A stretch of 7,273 nt of DNA from contig CALAQQ010000068.1 in assembly GCA_937888485.1 (NCBI GenBank), forward strand, positions 1 through 7,273. The letters are read 5' to 3'. This stretch comes from an uncultured Clostridia bacterium (GTDB lineage Bacteria; Bacillota; Clostridia; Oscillospirales; Acutalibacteraceae). The notes below the pieces were generated by a model, which was not told the origin of the DNA, made no database searches, and saw only the letters and a program-made list of their open reading frames with translations. Made by a program: the position numbers and the translations under genes. Positions within the stretch are counted from its first letter, which is position 1. The number at the start of each line of letters is the position of its first letter. Of the stretch, positions 1 through 7,273 are shown piece by piece.

Positions 1-289
1 CCGTAATACTGCCGACAATTATGAGACGGAGCTTATTATCCTTTACGGTCTCAATTATTTCGCAAAGTTGCTTTGTGCTTCGGGCAAGTCTCGAAACTTC
101 AAGGGTGTATATTGTGTCTCCTGCCTGAGCCTGTTCCAAGAGGGTTGAAAGCTCCTGCTTCACAGCACTGTCGCCGTGTTCGTATTCGAGAAATATTTCC
201 TCTGCTCCCGCCTTTTTCAGTTCATTAACCTGACGAAAAATGTCTTGACGATTCTCATTAGTCGAGCAACGTGCATATCCGTAATTCAT
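1..289 (-). CDS. Serine recombinase (resolvase/invertase family), N-terminal catalytic domain; 3' part beyond the window
   Basis: My own translation of the minus strand from ATG 289..287 gives MNYGYARCSTNENRQDIFRQVNELKKAGAEEIFLEYEHGDSAVKQELSTLLEQAQAGDTIYTLEVSRLARSTKQLCEIIETVKDNKLRLIIVGSIT, with no stop before the window edge. It has the classic YAR(V/C)ST nucleophile motif (Ser9) and a D..(V)SRL.R motif. A GGAG RBS lies at 297-300 (complement). It is absent from the ORF track because it is open at the edge. Confidence 0.85.
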   Translation of the reverse strand, partial: MNYGYARCSTNENRQDIFRQVNELKKAGAEEIFLEYEHGDSAVKQELSTLLEQAQAGDTIYTLEVSRLARSTKQLCEIIETVKDNKLRLIIVGSIT

Positions 290-303
290 GATTTATCTCC
301 TTA

Positions 304-570
304 TCAATCAACAAAGGTGTTGTATGTGAATTTAGCTCCGAGCTTAAAGCCTGCAATAAAACTGTCTGCGTTGCTCACGCAAAGGAACTCACCCGACTGT
401 TTCAGATATGTGTCAAACAGTTCGTTTTCAGCATCCGTCAGTTTTGCGGCAAGTTGTTCCTCGGTCTTTGACAATGCGGCGAGCTTATTTCTGACCTTCA
501 CCCTCAGCTCCGTTGTGATTTCCTGCGGCTCGATGTTGCCGTAATAAAATTCTTCAATAAAGTTCGGCAT
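304..570 (-). CDS. Small hypothetical protein (88 aa), co-operonic with the serine recombinase
   Basis: This is the ORF-track 304..594 frame. I prefer ATG 570..568 (MPNFIEEFYYGNIEPQE...) because a GGAGAAAGG RBS precedes it, while the longer start lies inside the 586-609 hairpin. The stop is TGA. The gene ends 14 nt upstream of the recombinase ATG. Confidence 0.65.
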   Translation of the reverse strand: MPNFIEEFYYGNIEPQEITTELRVKVRNKLAALSKTEEQLAAKLTDAENELFDTYLKQSGEFLCVSNADSFIAGFKLGAKFTYNTFVD

Positions 571-585
571 CTTATTGTCCTTTCT

Positions 586-609
586 CCGCCCCACTGTTGC
601 GTGGGGCGG
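586..609 (-). other. Intercistronic GC-rich stem-loop (9-bp stem, 6-nt loop)
   Basis: CCGCCCCAC (586-594) pairs perfectly with GTGGGGCGG (601-609). It lies between the stop of 621..896 and the RBS of 304..570. No U-tract follows on the minus strand, so it is more likely an mRNA processing, stability or attenuation element than a full terminator. Confidence 0.45.
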
Positions 610-620
610 ATTGCGTATTC

Positions 621-896
621 TTAGCAGATTGAGAAGCGGCGGCTTGAAACCTGCTTTGTGAACTCCTTATACATATCGGCGTGCATCTTCTTGAAAGATG
701 TTGTATCGAATCTCTGTGAAAGAACCGATGTCCAACGGATGATATAAGCTCCTGCTTCAAGTTCCTCGGTGTTCTGTTCAAGCATTTCAGCTTTGAGCAT
801 ATCTCTGATTGCTTCAGCCTCAGCCTTTGCATCCTCGATGATTGTTTCCCACTCTGCGAGAGCCTCGATTTTCTTGATGATTTCGTTGTTTGACAT
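621..896 (-). CDS. Small hypothetical protein (91 aa), acidic helical N-terminus; first gene of the recombinase operon
   Basis: ORF-track frame MSNNEIIKKIEALAEWETIIEDAKAEAEAIRDMLKAEM... An AGGAGA RBS lies 8 nt upstream of ATG 896..894. The stop is TAA. Confidence 0.65.
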   Translation of the reverse strand: MSNNEIIKKIEALAEWETIIEDAKAEAEAIRDMLKAEMLEQNTEELEAGAYIIRWTSVLSQRFDTTSFKKMHADMYKEFTKQVSSRRFSIC

Positions 897-953
897 GATT
901 GATTTCTCCTTTGTTGTGTTGTTTTGATGTGTGGTTGTTTATCAACTGTACTC

Positions 954-982
954 ATTATACTACGAAATTCGTAGTTTGTCAA
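954..982 (-). promoter_or_regulatory. Consensus sigma-70/SigA-type promoter for the leftward operon (621..896, 304..570, serine recombinase)
   Basis: On the minus strand: TTGACA (982..977), a 17-nt spacer, then TATAAT (959..954). The spacer is filled by the palindrome ACTACGAA-A-TTCGTAGT (959-975). Confidence 0.65.
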
Positions 983-1057
983 TACGTTTTTCGTAATTTC
1001 TTTACGATTTTCGAAATATTTTTTCGTTTTGCGTATTGAAATGCTACGAAATCCGTG
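961..1057. promoter_or_regulatory. Array of five phased operator-like sites, consensus TACG-N5-CGTA
   Basis: The sites are 961-973 TACGAAATTCGTA, 983-995 TACGTTTTTCGTA, 1003-1015 TACGATTTTCGAA, 1023-1035 TTCGTTTTGCGTA and 1045-1057 TACGAAATCCGTG. Start-to-start spacing is 22, 20, 20 and 22 bp, about two helical turns. The outer sites lie in the spacers of the two divergent promoters. The next pair abut the -35 boxes. Confidence 0.6.
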
Positions 1058-1064
1058 TTATACT
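1036..1064 (+). promoter_or_regulatory. Promoter for the XRE regulator gene (extended -10)
   Basis: TTGAAA (1036-1041), a 17-nt spacer, then TGtTATACT (-10 at 1059-1064, TG at 1056-1057). Operator-like site 1045-1057 lies in the spacer. An AAGGAG RBS at 1075-1080 lies 9 nt before ATG 1090. Confidence 0.6.
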
Positions 1065-1089
1065 ATCCAAAAGTAAGGAGTGATTATCA

Positions 1090-1305
1090 ATGATTAAGTT
1101 TAAAGTTAAAGTCAGACTTGCAGAATGCAATATGACACAAAAAGAATTAGCAGAAAAAACAGGCATCAGACCGCCGACAGTGTCCGCAATTTGCGTGGGA
1201 ACAGTAAAGCATTTGCCGATTGATGCACTTGACAAAATCTGCGAAGCTCTTGACTGTCAGCCTGCTGACCTCATGGAGTATGTAAACGAACCCGATGTTC
1301 AGTAA
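1090..1305 (+). CDS. XRE/Cro-CI family helix-turn-helix transcriptional regulator, YozG-like (71 aa)
   Basis: The sequence is MIKFKVKVRLAECNMTQKELAEKTGIRPPTVSAICVGTVKHLPIDALDKICEALDCQPADLMEY. It shows the typical HTH (MTQKELAEKTGI...TVS) and the C-terminal LDKIC.AL.C.P.DL motif of small YozG-type regulators. It has a strong RBS and a TAA stop. Confidence 0.9.
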   Translation: MIKFKVKVRLAECNMTQKELAEKTGIRPPTVSAICVGTVKHLPIDALDKICEALDCQPADLMEYVNEPDVQ

Positions 1306-1577
1306 AGGGGTACATTGATTTCTTGAACAAATATCGGTGTTTTTTGAGCGGATTACATCCGATTTTTACCGAGCTTAAAGTGTGCATGAAAGCATTTGTT
1401 TTTCTGAACAGGGGTCGGGGGTGTATTTCGGGAGAAAGAAAAATTTCTTCACCCTTTGCGAAAATGCGTGGCTCACTCTCCGTCTGAATGTGATTTTTAA
1501 TCCGAAACACGATTGTGCTGACCGCAAACGATAGAATTATATTTTCACCGTCAGGCGAACCAAAAGGAACATAAACG

Positions 1578-1624
1578 AAAAAATACGGCAAACCGTGAGA
1601 TTGTCTCTCTTGGTTTGCCGTATT
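1578..1624 (-). terminator. Rho-independent terminator ending the minus-strand RHH/Rep/GIY-YIG operon (may also act on the plus strand for the XRE gene)
   Basis: A 13-bp perfect stem pairs AATACGGCAAACC (1582-1594) with GGTTTGCCGTATT (1612-1624). On the minus strand TTTTTT follows it (A-run 1578-1583 on plus). The stem starts 1 nt after the TGA at 1626-1628. Confidence 0.8.
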
Positions 1625-1625
1625 A

Positions 1626-1757
1626 TCATTTCCACTCCTTGAACAACTCATCAAGAGCCATGTCAAGTGCGGTTTTCATACTCTTTTGCATGAAGGCAAG
1701 AATTTCTGCTTCAAGCACGTTCTTCTTCTTTTTTTTCTTATCTTTCTTGTTCGCCAA
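1626..1757 (-). CDS. Small lysine-rich hypothetical protein (43 aa, TTG start)
   Basis: My own translation gives (M)ANKKDKKKKKKNVLEAEILAFMQKSMKTALDMALDELFKEWK, then TGA. AAGGTG lies 7 nt upstream of TTG 1757..1755. The ORF ends directly at the terminator. It is too short for the ORF track. An internal ATG at Met23 is an alternative start. Confidence 0.4.
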   Translation of the reverse strand: MANKKDKKKKKKNVLEAEILAFMQKSMKTALDMALDELFKEWK

Positions 1758-1934
1758 TTATTTCACCTTGCTTTCAAAAACAAAAGTTATTTCATCGGCT
1801 TCGTCAGGTTCGTTCAGCGAATCAAAGATATTCTATATCTGTTCTGAATAATTCTCCATTGCGGACTTACCGTTTAACTGATAGTAAAATATATCAGGCA
1901 CTTTGCCTTGTTTTCTCCAAAACTCTAAATTCAT
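1758..1934 (-). CDS. Small hypothetical protein (58 codons) with an in-frame TAG at 1833-1835
   Basis: GGAAGGAGA RBS, then ATG 1934..1932: MNLEFWRKQGKVPDIFYYQLNGKSAMENYSEQI-TAG-NIFDSLNEPDEADEITFVFESKVK-TAA. The standard code gives only 33 aa. The frame stays open and protein-like after the TAG. Confidence 0.45.
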
Positions 1935-2362
1935 ATAATTTCTCCTTCCATAATCTAATCAAGGGATATATTCAATGCATCCCTGTTCATTTTGAATTTT
2001 CGCCAATCCTCCGCAGTCGGTATCTGACAGTTCAGCGGCGGCTGATACAAGCGGATAAAATATCCTTCTCTTTCTCCGATTTCTTCTTCGATTTCCGCTT
2101 TTGTTTTGCTCTTGGCGGTGTAAAGAACATGGAATCTGACGGAATAGTTCCGTCTGTTAGCTTCGGCAAGAACTTTATATTTATTCTCTTTTGGATTTCC
2201 CATTGAACACCAATGCTCCGCCATGCGATAAAGGATGTTATTGCTTTTACCGATATAAACGATTTTATTATTGACGGTGATTGAATACACCCCCGAACAC
2301 TAAAACTTTTTGCTCCATTCCTGTTGGATGTTTTTATTATAAATATTTTGAACACTATTCAT
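1931..2362 (-). CDS. GIY-YIG nuclease family protein with an in-frame TAG at 2300-2302 (the standard-code fragment is track ORF 1955..2290)
   Basis: AGGAGA RBS, then ATG 2362..2360: MNSVQNIYNKNIQQEWSKKF-TAG-CSGVYSITVNNKIVYIGKSNNILYRMAEH...EIGEREGYFIRLYQPPLN... The GVY...YIG motif, the conserved Arg and the Glu/Asn match GIY-YIG. The track ORF starts at a GTG that is really the V of GVY. The apparent stop is TAG at 1955-1957. If that TAG is read through, 8 more codons end at TGA 1933..1931, giving an ATGA overlap with the next ATG at 1934..1932. Confidence 0.75.
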
Positions 2363-2377
2363 GTTAATTCTCCTTTC

Positions 2378-2908
2378 TTAAAACACAAAGTCTCCGAGCT
2401 TATCTGAACACTCACTGACTTTTGGATTCTTTATATTATTGGGATTTATATTTTTCCCTATATTATTATGCGTATTATCAATAACCCCTGCAGAGGTACA
2501 TTCAAAATTCAAAGGGGTATTATCAATGTCGGCTGAGGGGGTATTTTCAATATCCGCCGCACTTTTGTAAATTGCATCATAATCAACTATGATTTCACCT
2601 TGCTGACCGTTCTGACTTGGCTTGTGGATTATCCAACCCTTTTCAATCAATGCTTTTCTTGCGTTTTTATATGTAGATTCTGACATTCCGCATCTGCTCA
2701 GAACGGTTGCCTCTGCAACAGCGAAACTGCCATTATCGGCGTTGCCTGTCAAAAACCACATAAGTTTGAGCTAAGCTCCTTCTTTGCCTGACAGACCGTT
2801 CATTATGATTGATTCAAGGTGATGTGTCCTGATTGCTTTTCCCCATTTATTATCCATATCTTTTTCCCCTTTAGACTTCAATATCGGTGCCTGATTGAAT
2901 ACGCCCAT
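2378..2908 (-). CDS. Winged-helix/HTH DNA-binding protein, replication-initiator-like, with an in-frame TAG at 2771-2773
   Basis: GGAGGA RBS (2923..2918), then ATG 2908..2906: MGVFNQAPILKSKGEKDMDNKWGKAIRTHHLESIIMNGLSGKEGA-TAG-LKLMWFLTGNADNGSFAVAEATVLSRCGMSESTYKNARKALIEKGWI... The stop is TAA at 2378-2380. The track ORF 2378..2761 is only the part after the TAG. The Rep-like call rests on the LS..(A)..L..L...N.....S...L....G.S..T...A...L...G.I pattern and is an inference. Confidence 0.6.
2472..2557. repeat. Iteron-like repeats inside the 3' half of the Rep-like gene
   Basis: GTATT(A/T)TCAAT occurs three times, at 2472-2482, 2517-2527 and 2541-2551. The last two sit in a 24-bp tandem unit, GGGGTATT[A/T]TCAAT[G/A]TC[G/C]GC, at 2514-2533 and 2538-2557. 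That unit encodes SADIENTP/SADIDNTP. A very AT-rich stretch at about 2425-2482 lies next to it and contains TATATTATT twice (2432-2440 and 2459-2467). Confidence 0.55.
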
Positions 2909-3050
2909 TGCCGCAAATCCTCCACTATTCACAAATAAATCTGATGTATTGACTTATGTTCATGTTATATTTTTCTGCCTGCTATTGGATTGATTCTTTT
3001 TCCCTTTCGGTCAGGCGAAGGTCAATCTTTTTATTCTTTATAGCTTTCAT
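2871..3050 (-). CDS. Ribbon-helix-helix protein (MobC/CopG-like) with in-frame TAGs at 2982-2984 and 2925-2927
   Basis: GGAGAG RBS, then ATG 3050..3048: MKAIKNKKIDLRLTEREKESIQ-TAG-QAEKYNMNISQYIRFICE-TAG-WRICGNGRIQSGTDIEV-TAA (2873..2871). The pattern (R)LT..E...I...A...(G/N).S.S.YIR is typical of RHH and MobC-type proteins, and the first TAG lies inside that motif. The standard code gives only 22 aa. The extended form overlaps the next gene start (2908) by 38 nt. Confidence 0.55.
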
Positions 3051-3119
3051 TTTTTCTCTCCTTTATCTTGTAAATTTTCTTTTTAATGATTTATCAGACT
3101 TTGTCCGACCTTCTATTAT

Positions 3120-3148
3120 ATTATATCAAAAATTTTTCTTAAAATCAA
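3120..3148 (-). promoter_or_regulatory. Promoter of the TAG-containing RHH/Rep/GIY-YIG operon (extended -10)
   Basis: On the minus strand: TTGATT (3148..3143), a 17-nt spacer, then TGaTATAAT (-10 at 3125..3120). A second overlapping TATAAT lies at 3120..3115. It sits just downstream of the terminator at 3165-3203. Confidence 0.6.
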
Positions 3149-3164
3149 AAAAGAGCGGTCGCCG

Positions 3165-3203
3165 CAAACAAAAACGCCGCTGAATCAATTAAGTTCAGCG
3201 GCG
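3165..3203 (-). terminator. Rho-independent terminator after the paralog pair
   Basis: A 10-bp stem pairs CGCCGCTGAA (3175-3184) with TTCAGCGGCG (3194-3203). On the minus strand TTTTTGTTTG follows it. A second small GC hairpin plus T-run follows at about 3150-3165. Confidence 0.75.
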
Positions 3204-3238
3204 GACTTGCTTTATTAAAATACATGGTTTTGTTCCTT

Positions 3239-3685
3239 TCAGGAAACTTTATCTTTCTTATCATATTTACTTTCGTCAGGGGGAGAAACAACCGTGAGAG
3301 TGGGTTTGAAATCAACCTCAAATTTAGGTGTTTCTTTATAATTTGGAAACTGTGAAATAAACCAATCAGAAACATACTTGTAGGGACTTTTCATCGGAGC
3401 GGACATTTTCTGAACCTTCTCAAACATAGCAATGAGTTCATCAGAATTGTTATAACATTCGATATGCTTTCTCATGTTTTTATATTTGAATCTCTTGTTC
3501 TCTCTTGGCTTTTTCTGTTCTCTGCCTGATTTGATGCTGACCTTAATGTTGGGGAAATCGTGCTTTATTGCCTGAACCATTGTGTATTCGGGAGAACCGT
3601 AAACTTCTGCGGCATCCCTGAACTTATAGTTCATAACAAGAGTGTTTGTTGTGTAGTCAATTCTATATCCGTTATTCTTTGCCAT
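3239..3685 (-). CDS. Hypothetical protein, paralog B of a tandem pair (148 aa)
   Basis: This is track ORF 3239..3694. I prefer ATG 3685 (MAKNNGYRIDYTT...), which is preceded by GAAAGGA. It shares YG(S/T)PEY, KY(K/E)NM, FEKV(Q/K)(K/R)MS and (S/N)PYKYV.DWF blocks with 3708..4148. The stop is TGA. Confidence 0.75.
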   Translation of the reverse strand: MAKNNGYRIDYTTNTLVMNYKFRDAAEVYGSPEYTMVQAIKHDFPNIKVSIKSGREQKKPRENKRFKYKNMRKHIECYNNSDELIAMFEKVQKMSAPMKSPYKYVSDWFISQFPNYKETPKFEVDFKPTLTVVSPPDESKYDKKDKVS

Positions 3686-3707
3686 TTTTATCAATTCCTT
3701 TCTTTAA

Positions 3708-4148
3708 TTACATGTTTGATGCCTTGTCAAGTTCGGTTATTTCTGCAGTTTTCTTTTTTTCAGCTCTCTGTTTTTCAACATTTTTGATAAATGTTTCGAA
3801 CGATTCATAACCTTCAAATTTCTTTTCAAACCAATCAAGAACATATTTATATGGGTTTTTCTGAACCTTAGACATTCTTTTTACCTTTTCGAATTCTGCT
3901 TTAAGAATATCCTTGTTTTCCTGCTCATCAATGAATGTTTCCATATTCTCATATTTGAGGTTTAAGGTTGTTTTCTTATTGGGATTCTTCTTGATTGTCT
4001 TAGTGGTCATTGTAAAATTAGGGTTTTCTGCTATAAACTCACGCCACTGTCTGTATTCGGGTGTTCCGTAGATTCTTGCCTTCTTTTCAAATGCCTTTGA
4101 TACCTGAGCCATGTTGTTGTCCATAATTTTGATTGTATTTTTTGTCAT
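3708..4148 (-). CDS. Hypothetical protein, paralog A of a tandem pair (146 aa)
   Basis: Track ORF MTKNTIKIMDNNMAQVSKAFEKKARIYGTPEYRQW... It is collinear with 3239..3685 through shared motif blocks. The stop is TAA. The RBS is weak. Confidence 0.75.
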   Translation of the reverse strand: MTKNTIKIMDNNMAQVSKAFEKKARIYGTPEYRQWREFIAENPNFTMTTKTIKKNPNKKTTLNLKYENMETFIDEQENKDILKAEFEKVKRMSKVQKNPYKYVLDWFEKKFEGYESFETFIKNVEKQRAEKKKTAEITELDKASNM

Positions 4149-4318
4149 TTTTAATTACCAACTTTCTTAAATTATTTTTTTAGTTTGAATTTTATTTGTT
4201 TTAGTTTTTGTGGGATTGATGATGTGTTGCTCTTGGCTTCGCTAAGTGAATGGTTGCCTGAACTGCTTCATGTTTGTTCGTTCCTTTCGTGTTGGTGTTG
4301 TTCATCTGTTGTGTCTAC

Positions 4319-4347
4319 ATTATAGCACCCACCAACACCCTACCCAA
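4319..4347 (-). promoter_or_regulatory. Promoter for the paralog-pair transcription unit (extended -10)
   Basis: On the minus strand: TTGGGT (4347..4342), a 17-nt spacer, then TGcTATAAT (-10 at 4324..4319). It lies just downstream of the integrase terminator. Confidence 0.5.
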
Positions 4348-4373
4348 GCACATAACTATTCCTCTGCTTTTGC

Positions 4374-4412
4374 AAAAAAAGAAAAAGAACAACTTTTTTT
4401 AGTTGTTCTTTT
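4374..4412 (-). terminator. Rho-independent terminator after the integrase gene
   Basis: A 10-bp stem pairs AAGAACAACT (4385-4394) with AGTTGTTCTT (4401-4410), with a T6 loop. On the minus strand TTTCTTTTTTT follows it (A-run 4374-4384 on plus). Confidence 0.8.
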
Positions 4413-4485
4413 ATCTCAAAGTTGTCAAAAGTTGATAGTTTAAAGCTAATTGAATCGATTTAAACTCTTTTGAGCGGATTTGCAG

Positions 4486-5418
4486 TTATTTATTAAGTTT
4501 TATTCTTTCACTATTGGATTTAAAATTATTTAAAGGGGAGAATGCATCGTAGTTCTTTGTTATATCCTTATCAAATATAGCACAATAATGTTTTGTCATA
4601 TCGAGAGTTGAATGTCCCAATAACCTCTGCAAAGTAAAAGCGTTGCCGCCGCAGTCAACCAAATACTTCTTAGCAAAAGTGTGTCTGAACAAGTGAATGC
4701 TTGTCTTTTGGACACCTCTGCGTTTGTTATACTTTGCAATAGTGCATCGTAAACCGTTTTCTGATAGCTGACCGCCTGTTTCATTCGGGAAAAGGAAATC
4801 ATCGTCTGAACCGCCTCTTATTCTCATATATTCATTTAATATACCGCAAAGCAAAGAACAGAGGGGTATCACCTGAGATTTCTTGTTTTTGGTGTGCCTG
4901 AGGTAAATCACCTGATTGTTCAGGTCAACATCTTTGTTGGTAATATTGCGGACTGAGGCGGCACGGCAACCGTTATTCAAGAGTAAATTTATTATCACCC
5001 AATTACGGTATTCTGAAAAACTGCACTTCCTCATATTGGGCTTGTTCAATAGCAATTTAAGCTCTAAATCGGTATAGGTGTCCTTGATTGTTTCCTCAGC
5101 TCTATACCTTGACAGGCTCAAATTCGCAATTCCTTCTTCTTTGCACCAAGAGAAAAAAGATTTCAGAGTTCGGGTATAACTCTGTATCGAATTTGCGGAT
5201 AAGCCGACATCACGCATACTTGAAATCATTTTTTCAAGGTCAGCCTTTTCAATGGAATCCATAGGATTATCAATGGGTAAATGTTTTCCGATTGATGATA
5301 AATGCTCTTTATATGTCCTCAATGTCTTTTCGCTAAGACCCAAAGACTTTTTTGCGAGCAGGAAATCATCAAAGGTTTCCGCCATTGAAACTGAAACTTT
5401 CATCTTGATTTTTGCCAT
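4486..5418 (-). CDS. Tyrosine-type site-specific recombinase/integrase (310 aa)
   Basis: This is track ORF 4486..5454. I prefer ATG 5418 (MAKIKMKVSVSMAETFDDFLL...), which has an AGGAG RBS 10 nt upstream; the track start is a TTG. It has an N-terminal SAM-like core-binding domain. The catalytic signature is present: R in NGCRAASVRN, HLFRHTF (H..R), and LGHSTLDMTKHY (H...Y). The stop is TAA. Confidence 0.9.
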   Translation of the reverse strand: MAKIKMKVSVSMAETFDDFLLAKKSLGLSEKTLRTYKEHLSSIGKHLPIDNPMDSIEKADLEKMISSMRDVGLSANSIQSYTRTLKSFFSWCKEEGIANLSLSRYRAEETIKDTYTDLELKLLLNKPNMRKCSFSEYRNWVIINLLLNNGCRAASVRNITNKDVDLNNQVIYLRHTKNKKSQVIPLCSLLCGILNEYMRIRGGSDDDFLFPNETGGQLSENGLRCTIAKYNKRRGVQKTSIHLFRHTFAKKYLVDCGGNAFTLQRLLGHSTLDMTKHYCAIFDKDITKNYDAFSPLNNFKSNSERIKLNK

Positions 5419-5476
5419 TTTTGCAACACTCCTGATTCGTATATTTTTCGTCAAAAATCAAGCGTGTCAACAAAAC

Positions 5477-5520
5477 AAAGAAAAAACCGTTCAAACCTTT
5501 AAGTTTGAACGGTTTTCTTT
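5477..5520. terminator. Bidirectional rho-independent terminator between tRNA-Pro and the integrase gene
   Basis: CCGTTCAAAC (5487-5496) pairs with GTTTGAACGG (5503-5512). Flanking A4/T4 runs extend the stem. T-rich tracts follow it on both strands. It lies about 5 nt past the tRNA CCA end. Confidence 0.75.
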
Positions 5521-5524
5521 GTTA

Positions 5525-5600
5525 TGGTCCGAGTGGCGAGACTTGAACTCACGGCCTCTTGACCCCCAGTCAAGCGCGCTACCAACTGCGCCACACCCGG
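5525..5600 (-). tRNA. tRNA-Pro (anticodon GGG), 76 nt, with encoded CCA
   Basis: Manual cloverleaf fold of the minus strand: CCGGGTG TG GCGC AGTTGGTA GCGC G CTTGA CTGGGGG TCAAG AGGCC GTGAG TTCAAGT CTCGC CACTCGG A CCA. The 7-bp acceptor stem has one G-U pair. The C1-G72 pair and A73 are typical of bacterial tRNA-Pro. U33 is followed by GGG and G37. The T-loop is TTCAAGT. Confidence 0.85.
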
Positions 5601-5815: not shown

Positions 5816-7273
5816 ATGGATAGAATTGCAATATGGTTAACCATAGGTATTTACATTGTTATTATGGTTATAATCGGAATTACTCAGGGTAAAAAAGCAA
5901 AAAGCATTGCCGACCTCACAGTTGGCGGCAGAAACGCAGGCGCATGGCTCTCTGCCCTCTCTTACGGTACTGCTTATTTTTCGGCAGTTATGTTCGTAGG
6001 TTATGCAGGCGGTACCGGAAAAGGCTTCGGTCTCTGGGGTATTCTTGCGGGTCTTGGAAATGCTGTTTTCGGTTCATGGCTTGCATGGAAAGTTCTTGCA
6101 AGAAGAACAAGAGACACATCTTATCGTCTCAAGATTAAAACAATGCCGCAATTCCTTGAAAAGCGTTATTCAAGCGAAAGCATGCGACTTTTTGCATGCA
6201 TAATCATATTTGTATTCCTTATCCCTTATTCAGCATCGGTTTACAAGGGACTTGCTTCTGTTGCAGATGTTCTTCTTGGTATAAATGTTGAAATCTGTAT
6301 GATTATCATCGCTGTTGTCGCAGCACTTCTTCTTGTCTTCGGCGGTTATCTTGTTCAGGCAAGAGCCGACTTTATGCAGGGAATTGTTATGATGTTCGGC
6401 ATTGCACTTCTTATCGTATGTGTTATTCGCTGTGATGCCGTCGGAGGATTCGAAGGAATAATGGAATACGCACATACCCTCGGTACACAGCCTTCAGCAA
6501 CAAACGGATTACCCAAGCTCAACTCTTCACAGTGGATTTCACTCTGGGCAACCGTTCTCATGACAAGCTTCGGCACATGGGGTCTTCCTCAGATGGTTAC
6601 AAAGTATTTCGGAATCAAGAACGATACACAGGCAAAGAAAGGCATTACAATCTCTACATTCTTTGCATTTCTCGTTGCAGGTGGCGGATATTTCATCGGC
6701 TCGCTTTGCTACAGATACTTTACATATGCACAGCTTAACGATCCTGCAGACCCCAACTACATTGCGCAGGACTTCATCGTTCCGAATATGCTCAAGGAAT
6801 CAAATCTTCCCTCTGTTCTTCTCGGAATAGTTCTTGTTCTTCTCATTGCGGCTTCGGTTTCGACACTTTGCTCGGTAACACTTACCGCAAGCTCAACTCT
6901 TACAATTGACTTTATCAAACATTTCAAAAAAGACCTGAGCGATAAAAAATCATCATTGATTATTAAGGTATTATGTGTTATATTTGTAATATGTTCGTAT
7001 ATTATAGCTAACACGGACACCGCAATTCTTGACATGATGAGCTACTCATGGGGCATCATTTCAGGCTCTTTCCTTGCTCCTTACGTTATTTCTCTCTATT
7101 GGAAAAAGATGAACACCAAAGGTGCATGGGCAGGTATCATCGGCGGATTTGTTATTGCAGCAATTCCCGCAGCAGCAAAACTTGCAACAAACTTCACTGC
7201 CGATGAAACAGTTATTATGCTTGCAGGAAAAGGTCCCGTGTTTGCATGCATAGCAATGATCGCTTCACTTGCA
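5816..7273 (+). CDS. Sodium:solute symporter (SSS) family transporter, partial (486 codons, 3' end beyond the window)
   Basis: My own translation from ATG 5816 gives MDRIAIWLTIGIYIVIMVIIGITQGKKAKSIADLTVGGRNAGAWLSALSYGTAYFSAVMFVGYAGGTGKGFGLWGIL... and continues without a stop to 7273. It is a multi-span hydrophobic protein with the SSS-type N-terminal pattern (..GGR....W....S...T..SA..F.G..G). It is absent from the ORF track because it is open at the edge. The substrate cannot be told from sequence alone. Confidence 0.85.
   Translation, partial: MDRIAIWLTIGIYIVIMVIIGITQGKKAKSIADLTVGGRNAGAWLSALSYGTAYFSAVMFVGYAGGTGKGFGLWGILAGLGNAVFGSWLAWKVLARRTRDTSYRLKIKTMPQFLEKRYSSESMRLFACIIIFVFLIPYSASVYKGLASVADVLLGINVEICMIIIAVVAALLLVFGGYLVQARADFMQGIVMMFGIALLIVCVIRCDAVGGFEGIMEYAHTLGTQPSATNGLPKLNSSQWISLWATVLMTSFGTWGLPQMVTKYFGIKNDTQAKKGITISTFFAFLVAGGGYFIGSLCYRYFTYAQLNDPADPNYIAQDFIVPNMLKESNLPSVLLGIVLVLLIAASVSTLCSVTLTASSTLTIDFIKHFKKDLSDKKSSLIIKVLCVIFVICSYIIANTDTAILDMMSYSWGIISGSFLAPYVISLYWKKMNTKGAWAGIIGGFVIAAIPAAAKLATNFTADETVIMLAGKGPVFACIAMIASLA

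Follow-up and report, generated by a model that had tools for sequence, protein, structure and literature searches.

The 7,273-nt stretch of DNA analyzed here (contig CALAQQ010000068.1 of an uncultured Clostridia bacterium of the Acutalibacteraceae; hereafter the window) contains the greater part of a small integrative element, whose insertion site is the 3′ end of a tRNA-Pro gene in a standard-code Oscillospirales gut bacterium. Two coding regimes are present within this one element: the genes for integration and regulation and their neighbors are written in the standard code, whereas a separately transcribed replication operon uses TAG as a sense codon. The window was mapped from an open reading frame (ORF) listing, a six-frame translation in which the three stop codons were marked separately, and Pfam and PHROG scans; related loci are referred to by their L numbers where they have to be told apart.

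The TAG-using operon (1626–3050, minus strand) comprises five genes. The first encodes a 59-aa ribbon-helix-helix (RHH) protein of the NikA/CopG type (2871–3050; Pfam NikA-like, E = 1.5e-8), with in-frame TAGs at 2982–2984 and 2925–2927 and the stop codon TAA. It is followed by a gene for a Rep-like winged helix-turn-helix (wHTH) protein (2378–2932; stop TAA) that matches Pfam HTH_36 (phage replication-initiator/DnaD-like N-terminal domain), has a TAG within the domain (2771–2773), and has PHROG matches (phrog_270, 186, 428, and 678) that are all replication initiation or helicase loader families. The third gene encodes a 143-aa GIY-YIG nuclease (1931–2362; Pfam GIY-YIG, E = 1.4e-7; phrog_1111 endonuclease; stop TGA) with TAGs at 2300–2302 and 1955–1957. 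Two small genes complete the operon: orfD (58 aa; 1758–1934; stop TAA), with a TAG at 1833–1835 that occupies a different position in the L095 orthologue, and orfE (43 aa; 1626–1757; stop TGA), which has no TAG and is conserved in L002, L004, and L095. A promoter scan placed a sigma-70-like promoter (TTGATT-17-TATAAT, with an extended –10 TG) at 3120–3148 on the minus strand, and the operon ends in a terminator hairpin with 19-nt arms followed by a T-run (1582–1624, minus strand; inverted repeat I2). A second hairpin (3166–3212, minus strand; inverted repeat I6, also detected by the terminator scan) insulates the upstream integrase unit from the operon. The operon thus forms a transcription unit of its own, as an earlier interpretation of this DNA made from the letters alone (the sequence-only reading) had proposed from the same promoter and terminator signals.

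The 479 codons of the operon include six TAGs in frame but neither TAA nor TGA, whereas the other element genes in the window have no TAG in 950 codons and the adjoining host symporter gene has none in 486. By Fisher’s exact test, the difference between the two sets of element genes has p = 0.0014 per codon and p = 0.0044 against CAG plus CAA. TAG trinucleotides outside the reading frame are equally dense in the operon and in the other element genes, so mutational supply does not explain the partition. These counts reproduce every number of the sequence-only reading, which had set about 950 TAG-free codons against six TAGs in about 480 operon codons and had noted the TAG-free symporter. Its further claim that no element gene needs TAG as a stop holds for the window, where all element genes end in TAA or TGA if TAG is sense, but not for relatives, in which 6 of 59 integrases, 3 of 9 XRE regulators, and 4 of 23 resolvases are standard-code genes that end in TAG.

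The genes without TAG form two further units, apart from the XRE regulator gene. A 310-aa tyrosine integrase (4486–5418, minus strand; Pfam Phage_integrase, E = 4e-26, plus a SAM-like N-terminal domain; stop TAA) is followed on the same strand by paralog A (146 aa; 3708–4148) and paralog B (148 aa; 3239–3685), the latter identified as an ORF and followed by the 3166–3212 hairpin. This pair of approximately 150-aa paralogs is conserved and always comes after the integrase; neither has a Pfam or PHROG match, and a confident AlphaFold2 (AF2) model of paralog A with a predicted local distance difference test score (pLDDT) of 81.5 had no Foldseek match in PDB or BFVD. Beyond the operon, a 71-aa XRE/Cro-C1-type HTH regulator (1090–1305, plus strand; Pfam HTH_26, E = 2.5e-20; stop TAA) faces a divergent unit of three minus-strand genes. 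The first of these encodes a 91-aa protein (621–896; stop TAA) that matches phrog_6244 and a RecE-like C-terminal region (E = 1e-13) and is 100% identical in L003–L006. It is followed by an 88-aa DUF6809 protein (304–570; Pfam DUF6809, E = 2.2e-19; stop TGA), for which an exact-sequence look-up gave no record, and by the N-terminal 96 codons of a serine recombinase of the resolvase/invertase type (2–289; Pfam Resolvase, E = 4.6e-18), which is cut by the left end of the window and has full-length 195-aa orthologues in L003, L010, and L095. The divergent promoter region (954–1064) has a perfect TTGACA-17-TATAAT promoter for the 91-aa gene (982–954, minus strand) and one for the XRE gene (1036–1064, plus strand). 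The XRE regulator may have as its operators a near-palindrome, CTACGAAATTCGTAG (960–974), and additional repeats resembling TACGAAAT, all of which are located between the XRE and 91-aa promoters.

On the right, the element adjoins the host tRNA-Pro(GGG) gene (5525–5600, minus strand; ARAGORN and Rfam), the 3′ half of which is the attachment (att) site on the attL side, and beyond this lies a host sodium:solute symporter gene (5816–7273, plus strand; Pfam SSF, E = 1e-48). A 17-bp hairpin (5481–5518) separates the tRNA 3′ end from the integrase promoter. It is part of the element’s half of the junction and possibly serves as a terminator or belongs to the recombination site; L002 has a corresponding hairpin of different sequence (380–420). 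The element leaves the window at its left edge, and the partner att repeat lies beyond that edge. By comparison with complete relatives, the full element is probably about 8–12 kb. At 24 loci, a tRNA gene (Pro, Lys, Ala, or Arg) precedes the integrase gene by approximately 100 nt, and the far end is marked by a direct repeat of the tRNA 3′ half (approximately 46 nt in most); complete att-bounded elements measure 4.3–12.3 kb. At L097 (3114–15171), a tandem arrangement at tRNA-Pro consists of the tRNA gene, a 3.8-kb integrase-less segment with acetyltransferase and HTH_19 genes, a second 45-nt att repeat, an 8-kb element, and a third repeat. The possibility that L002 represents an excised circle was rejected, given that the DUF6809-like gene beside its integrase is on the wrong strand.

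Behind the resolvase, the gene content varies between relatives: this cargo region contains defense-like genes, all free of TAG (L100 12953–19358; L003 5005–6399; L010 15338–17235; L066 10980–11744). The cargo includes an Eco57I-like methyltransferase, a 982-aa T5orf172/ResIII protein, WYL/WCX regulators, a DUF4379 zinc-finger/REase_MTES_1575 protein, and SprT-like proteins. No capsid, terminase, tail, or lysis genes were present in the ORF lists or in the Pfam/PHROG scans of complete att-bounded copies, and no relaxase domain was found by Pfam in any scanned protein, the NikA-like RHH being the only feature of that kind. The small terminase subunit (terS), capsid-size redirection proteins, and head-tail adaptors likewise had no Pfam/PHROG match in these gene-level scans. 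A megablast of window positions 1–5500 against phage and plasmid collections gave no match; the closest element in a named genome, an Acutalibacteraceae metagenome-assembled genome (MAG), has 86% nucleotide identity.

The partition recurs in about 150 related loci drawn from two samples. The first sample was obtained by an integrase scan with one genome per species, which yielded 62 loci, each distinct sequence context being counted once; all are from Oscillospirales and related Clostridia of animal and human guts, including three cultured isolates. In this sample, TAG accounts for 69 of 355 glutamine-type codons in operon genes and for 1 of 771 in the integrase, paralog, XRE, 91-aa, DUF6809, and resolvase genes (p ~1e-35). 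The second sample, independent of the first, was collected by means of the HTH protein and consists of 80 metagenome loci; it gave 93 of 698 in operon genes against 0 of 390 in the other genes (p ~1e-19). These family counts are not phylogenetically independent; nevertheless, the TAGs are spread over no fewer than 32 alignment columns. Samples ERZ1767568, DRR848668, and JGI 3300029305 contain the element. Outside the operon, a single TAG was encountered in approximately 36,000 element codons, so the scattering of TAGs through integrase and regulator homologs that would have spoken against the partition was not seen. The integrases in particular avoid in-frame TAG, with one in the 62 + 30 integrases of the two samples (approximately 20,600 distinct codons). 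The sole case (L032 10113–10115) lies at a site that is glutamine in relatives (TYS#HF, where # is TAG, vs. TYKQHL); the gene either has recently undergone a CAG-to-TAG nonsense mutation or is a rare case of a recoded integrase.

TAG use is also not tied to one family of replication proteins. Conserved in-frame TAGs also occur in a non-homologous replication-module gene, located next to a Toprim or PriCT primase, of the isolates Flavonifractor porci P01024 and Colidextribacter sp. OB.20 and of one MAG. De novo clustering of TAG-sense ORFs was too noisy for the principal statistic, antisense frames of conserved genes clustering too, and served only to spot this extra replication family in L014, L016, and L066. 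At L010, a 224-aa gene that appears to end in TAG (12318–13028) replaces the recoded operon, while the integrase is 82% identical and the flanking modules are the same; variants of the replication module with and without internal TAGs thus coexist in the family.

Comparison of operon copies indicates how TAG is read. The window TAGs split recognizable domains, namely the RHH, the wHTH, and the region directly ahead of the GIY motif. A 96% identical copy (L002) keeps all six of them, and more distant window-type copies (L095, L096, and L100) keep most and have added others; gene callers read the TAGs as sense in close relatives. Where a window-type copy lacks a window TAG, it has glutamine at the site, with the exception of one aspartate and one tyrosine: the TAG site of the Rep-like HTH gene is glutamine (CAG/CAA) in L096, the first RHH site is glutamine in L100, and the second RHH site is tyrosine in L096. 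At the second GIY-YIG site, L095 has aspartate and keeps the tail IMEGE.I, so this TAG too is sense. Many relatives have a divergent operon type, first met in L003, that consists of orf78, a Rep-like HTH gene, and a GIY-YIG gene. In the HTH protein of this type, the invariant glutamine column YPN[Q]R is encoded by CAG in 8 sequences, CAA in 5, and TAG in 12, and the invariant column TYHD[Q]F by CAG in 4, CAA in 12, and TAG in 8. Because TAG exchanges with CAG and CAA at invariant glutamine columns, the alignments identify TAG as a glutamine codon in the operon.

The suggestion that the operon genes are decaying pseudogenes, or that the TAGs are assembly errors, is refuted by these comparisons. 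Standard gene callers do fragment the operon genes (L001), as would be expected of decaying genes. However, TAG occurs 84 times inside the operon-gene alignments of the first sample (approximately 60 loci), TAA twice, and TGA not at all; there are no frameshifts, and the TAGs are identical in independent assemblies. The ratio of nonsynonymous to synonymous substitution rates (dN/dS) between operon copies is 0.07–0.5, and restricting the comparison to the sequence beyond the first TAG gives the same result. The genes are therefore not pseudogenes, and this holds equally against the prospect, which the sequence-only reading had named as fatal to its interpretation, that they are non-functional remnants in all relatives.

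The codon usage also bears on whether ordinary termination could simply leak. Near-cognate read-through of UAG classically inserts glutamine, and rare misreading by the host tRNA-Gln (CUG/UUG) could act as a throttle that keeps Rep and the nuclease low, for control of copy number or toxicity. Glutamine insertion would fit the interchange of TAG with CAG and CAA, and some of the genes have a single TAG only. We nevertheless regard such a throttle as unlikely: there are up to five TAGs in one Rep gene and at least seven per operon in relatives, so that read-through of a few percent per site would give a negligible yield, and TAG makes up approximately one fifth of the glutamine codons of operon genes, as in recoded phages. 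A context-driven read-through signal was considered and dropped, as the +4 base and neighboring sequence of the TAGs are no different from those of CAG and there is no shared downstream motif.

As far as can be seen from their flanking genes, the hosts use the standard code: 32 of 227 flanking genes of at least 150 aa (14%) end in TAG, and coding density under the standard code is 90%. ARAGORN detected no tRNA(CUA) in the window or in approximately 170 loci covering whole elements, and the only tRNA that Rfam returned for the window was tRNA-Pro. In L031 and L051, the integrase gene ends in TAG while the Rep gene has four in-frame TAGs; since TAG is both stop and sense in one element, the two gene sets would be translated in different cellular states. 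Given that the TAGs are sense codons, that the hosts are standard-code, and that the element encodes no tRNA(CUA), full-length replication proteins would require a suppressor supplied in trans. There would be no gating at all if the host itself read TAG, by means of a chromosomal suppressor or a pyrrolysine-type system, and the host evidence, which comes from flanking genes, leaves some room for this. It is very improbable, however, in view of the TAG-terminated flanking genes and their coding density, the integrase, XRE, and resolvase genes of relatives that end in TAG, and the near-complete lack of TAG in element genes outside the operon. Pyrrolysine decoding in particular predicts no interchange with CAG and CAA; TAG aligns with glutamine in unrelated protein families, and no tRNA(CUA) was found.

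Phages are a plausible source of such a suppressor. The sequence-only reading had named both the element’s own late region and a helper phage; the former is excluded, in that complete copies of 4–12 kb have no late or structural region and no suppressor tRNA. The orf78-HTH-GIY module also occurs in IMG/VR phage contigs of approximately 100 kb (L070 7190–7903 and 15–600, and the related contigs L092–L094; IMG/VR 3300045988). These contigs have scattered in-frame TAGs elsewhere: in a uracil-DNA glycosylase gene, in a second HTH paralog at the PN#R site, and in a 73-aa ORF with three TAGs. The TAG in the glycosylase presumably falls at the glutamine of the YPPQ motif of E. coli Ung. This phage appears to be partly TAG-recoded; a further approximately 6 kb along the contig contained no tRNA. 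A scan of IMG/VR with the anticodon arm of host tRNA-Gln carrying CTA revealed several phage tRNA(CUA) genes, none of them like the host tRNA-Gln, and the IMG/VR loci of these genes have no gene in common with the element; no particular suppressor-bearing phage could be linked to the elements.

The occurrence of the same module in recoded phage contigs raises an alternative, in which the module has been captured repeatedly from TAG-recoded phages and is dead in the elements, so that the partition records mosaic origin only. Glutamine codon preference differs between modules (201 CAA to 85 CAG in the operon; 130 CAG to 35 CAA in the paralogs, 91-aa gene, and DUF6809 gene), which hints at a different evolutionary source for the operon. 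The elements are also mosaic; for example, the left part of L003 is 95% identical to window positions 1–1602, yet its operon is divergent. Both observations agree with capture. We consider a dead module rather unlikely, because copies borne by elements in different hosts have dN/dS values far below 1, also downstream of the TAGs, the module occupies a fixed place in more than 100 att-bounded elements, and the non-homologous replication module likewise has TAGs.

The GIY-YIG gene has the highest TAG density in the operon across the family (43 TAG vs. 123 CAG/CAA). At column 54 of its alignment (motif RVA#HY; e.g., in L003 2519–2935), TAG is present in 12 of 12 L003-type operon sequences and never replaced by CAG or CAA. 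In the same comparison, a single codon is kept in only 1 of 31 amino acid-invariant columns, synonymous sites being otherwise saturated. Selection appears to favor the stop codon as such at column 54, which is a further point against a dead, captured module. Together with the defense-like cargo (WYL regulators, Eco57I-like methyltransferase, and T5orf172/ResIII protein), the TAG density of this gene and its TAG site that never drifts would also suit an infection trap, that is, an abortive-infection or defense device in which the nuclease and its partners are made when a recoded phage brings a suppressor and then damage phage or host DNA. We hold this to be distinctly unlikely: the gated genes include a replication-initiator-like protein, the same trio is found in the replication region of a phage, and no toxin-like effector was found beyond the small nuclease.

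We instead favor conditional translation of the replication operon by means of a suppressor acting in trans, most plausibly from a recoded phage, to which we assign a probability of roughly 0.55. The integrase, the paralogs, the XRE regulator, the unit of the 91-aa, DUF6809, and resolvase genes, and the cargo can be translated in any host cell. In an ordinary cell, release factor 1 (RF1) would end translation of the operon at the first TAG, and transcription of the operon would yield truncated peptides only. The integrated element would then remain a quiescent passenger, with its integrase, regulators, and cargo still functioning. Full-length Rep and nuclease would be made only in the presence of a tRNA-Gln-like amber suppressor. 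This suppressor must come in trans because the element encodes no such tRNA, and its most plausible source would be a TAG-recoded (code 15) phage that has infected the cell or been induced in it. Replication of the element would in this way be coupled to the code switch of the phage and restricted to phage-infected or phage-induced cells, in the manner of a satellite and its helper. Of the translational licensing proposed by the sequence-only reading, the sense TAGs, their confinement to the operon, the standard-code hosts, and the need for a suppressor in trans were all borne out; the switch itself is what we infer from them, and a helper phage as the suppressor source, similarly derived, is plausible.

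Several observations weigh against trans-acting suppression as the operating mechanism. No source of the suppressor was identified in the loci, the window, or the IMG/VR scan, and the search for tRNA(CUA) was one of element loci. The contrast between a CAA-rich operon and CAG-rich paralogs would be equally expected if the module had merely been imported from recoded phages, and gating is not universal in the family, since some relatives, such as L010, have a different replication gene without an internal TAG. The family is nearly absent from IMG/VR (two matches per query), with no evidence of travel in virions. The Pfam/PHROG scans showed no packaging, capsid-redirecting, or relaxase gene, so that the case for helper dependence is a coding argument throughout.

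A broader and more tentative possibility, which we rate well below the suppression mechanism itself, is that these elements form a hitherto undescribed class of phage satellites (or phage-triggered islands) of the gut, which sense their helper by its amber suppressor tRNA and not by a protein signal. They have an integrase with an att site, a size that is a fraction of that of a phage, a replication module of their own, and a master regulator, all of which are satellite-type traits. For such a satellite, the change of genetic code in the infected cell would be the induction signal that unlocks Rep and the GIY-YIG nuclease, while the integrase, repressor, and defense cargo stay in the standard code. 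If a suppressor in trans does unlock the module, stop-codon recoding would be a channel through which one mobile element reads the state of another, and recoded phages would have parasites or sentinels tuned to their code switch. Standard annotation fragments the operon genes (L001; NCBI MAG records), which leaves the family invisible in current catalogues. The hypothesis can be tested directly in two cultured carriers, Flavonifractor porci P01024 and Colidextribacter sp. OB.20.

Among described systems, recoded prophages are the nearest in coding logic. Many of these, though not all, are said to carry a suppressor tRNA or another code-switch factor of their own, and virion and lysis genes are the most recoded in such genomes. 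The Garnet and Topaz prophages are TAG-recoded with TAG-free integrases, and use of the code as a life-cycle switch has been proposed for them, with recoding of replication genes being variable in phages of this type (Borges et al., bioRxiv 10.1101/2021.08.26.457843). Topaz is a temperate phage of Oscillospiraceae of approximately 22 kb with a TAG-free integrase, and adjoins a tRNA (bioRxiv 10.1101/2021.08.26.457843). The element described here shares with both the use of in-frame TAG as glutamine in a standard-code host, a TAG-avoiding integrase, integration beside a tRNA gene, and the same logic of a switch, and shares with Topaz the host family (Oscillospiraceae). Unlike them, it is 4–12 kb in size, lacks virion genes, lysis genes, and tRNA(CUA), and is recoded in the replication operon only.

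In its architecture, the element resembles phage satellites such as phage-inducible chromosomal islands (PICIs), P4-like satellites, and marine virion-encapsidated integrative mobile elements (VEIMEs) (Eppley et al., 2022; PMC9618062). Like these, it is small, has a tyrosine integrase, uses att sites linked to tRNA genes, places an XRE-type regulator opposite a divergent unit, carries an autonomous module for replication together with variable defense-like cargo, and has a life cycle proposed to be triggered by a phage. Known satellites, however, sense the helper via protein–repressor interactions and carry packaging or capsid-remodeling genes, none of which was found here. Full-text literature searches did not turn up any satellite or integrative element reported to use recoded stop codons, nor any satellite described as gated by the suppressor tRNA of its helper. 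The element also has features in common with integrative and mobilizable elements (IMEs) of Firmicutes: it is small, its integrase has an att site at a tRNA gene, it encodes a NikA-like RHH protein of the kind that acts as a relaxosome accessory, and the family includes tandem arrays at one site (L097). It differs from IMEs in having no relaxase and no recognizable origin of transfer (oriT). To our knowledge, IMEs do not use recoded stop codons.

The same partition has thus already been put forward as a hypothesis for TAG-recoded prophages (Borges et al.), and stop-codon recoding has so far been described for phage genomes that carry their own means of code switching. What is new here is a satellite-sized, non-viral element without a suppressor of its own, in which recoding is confined to a single module, that of replication.

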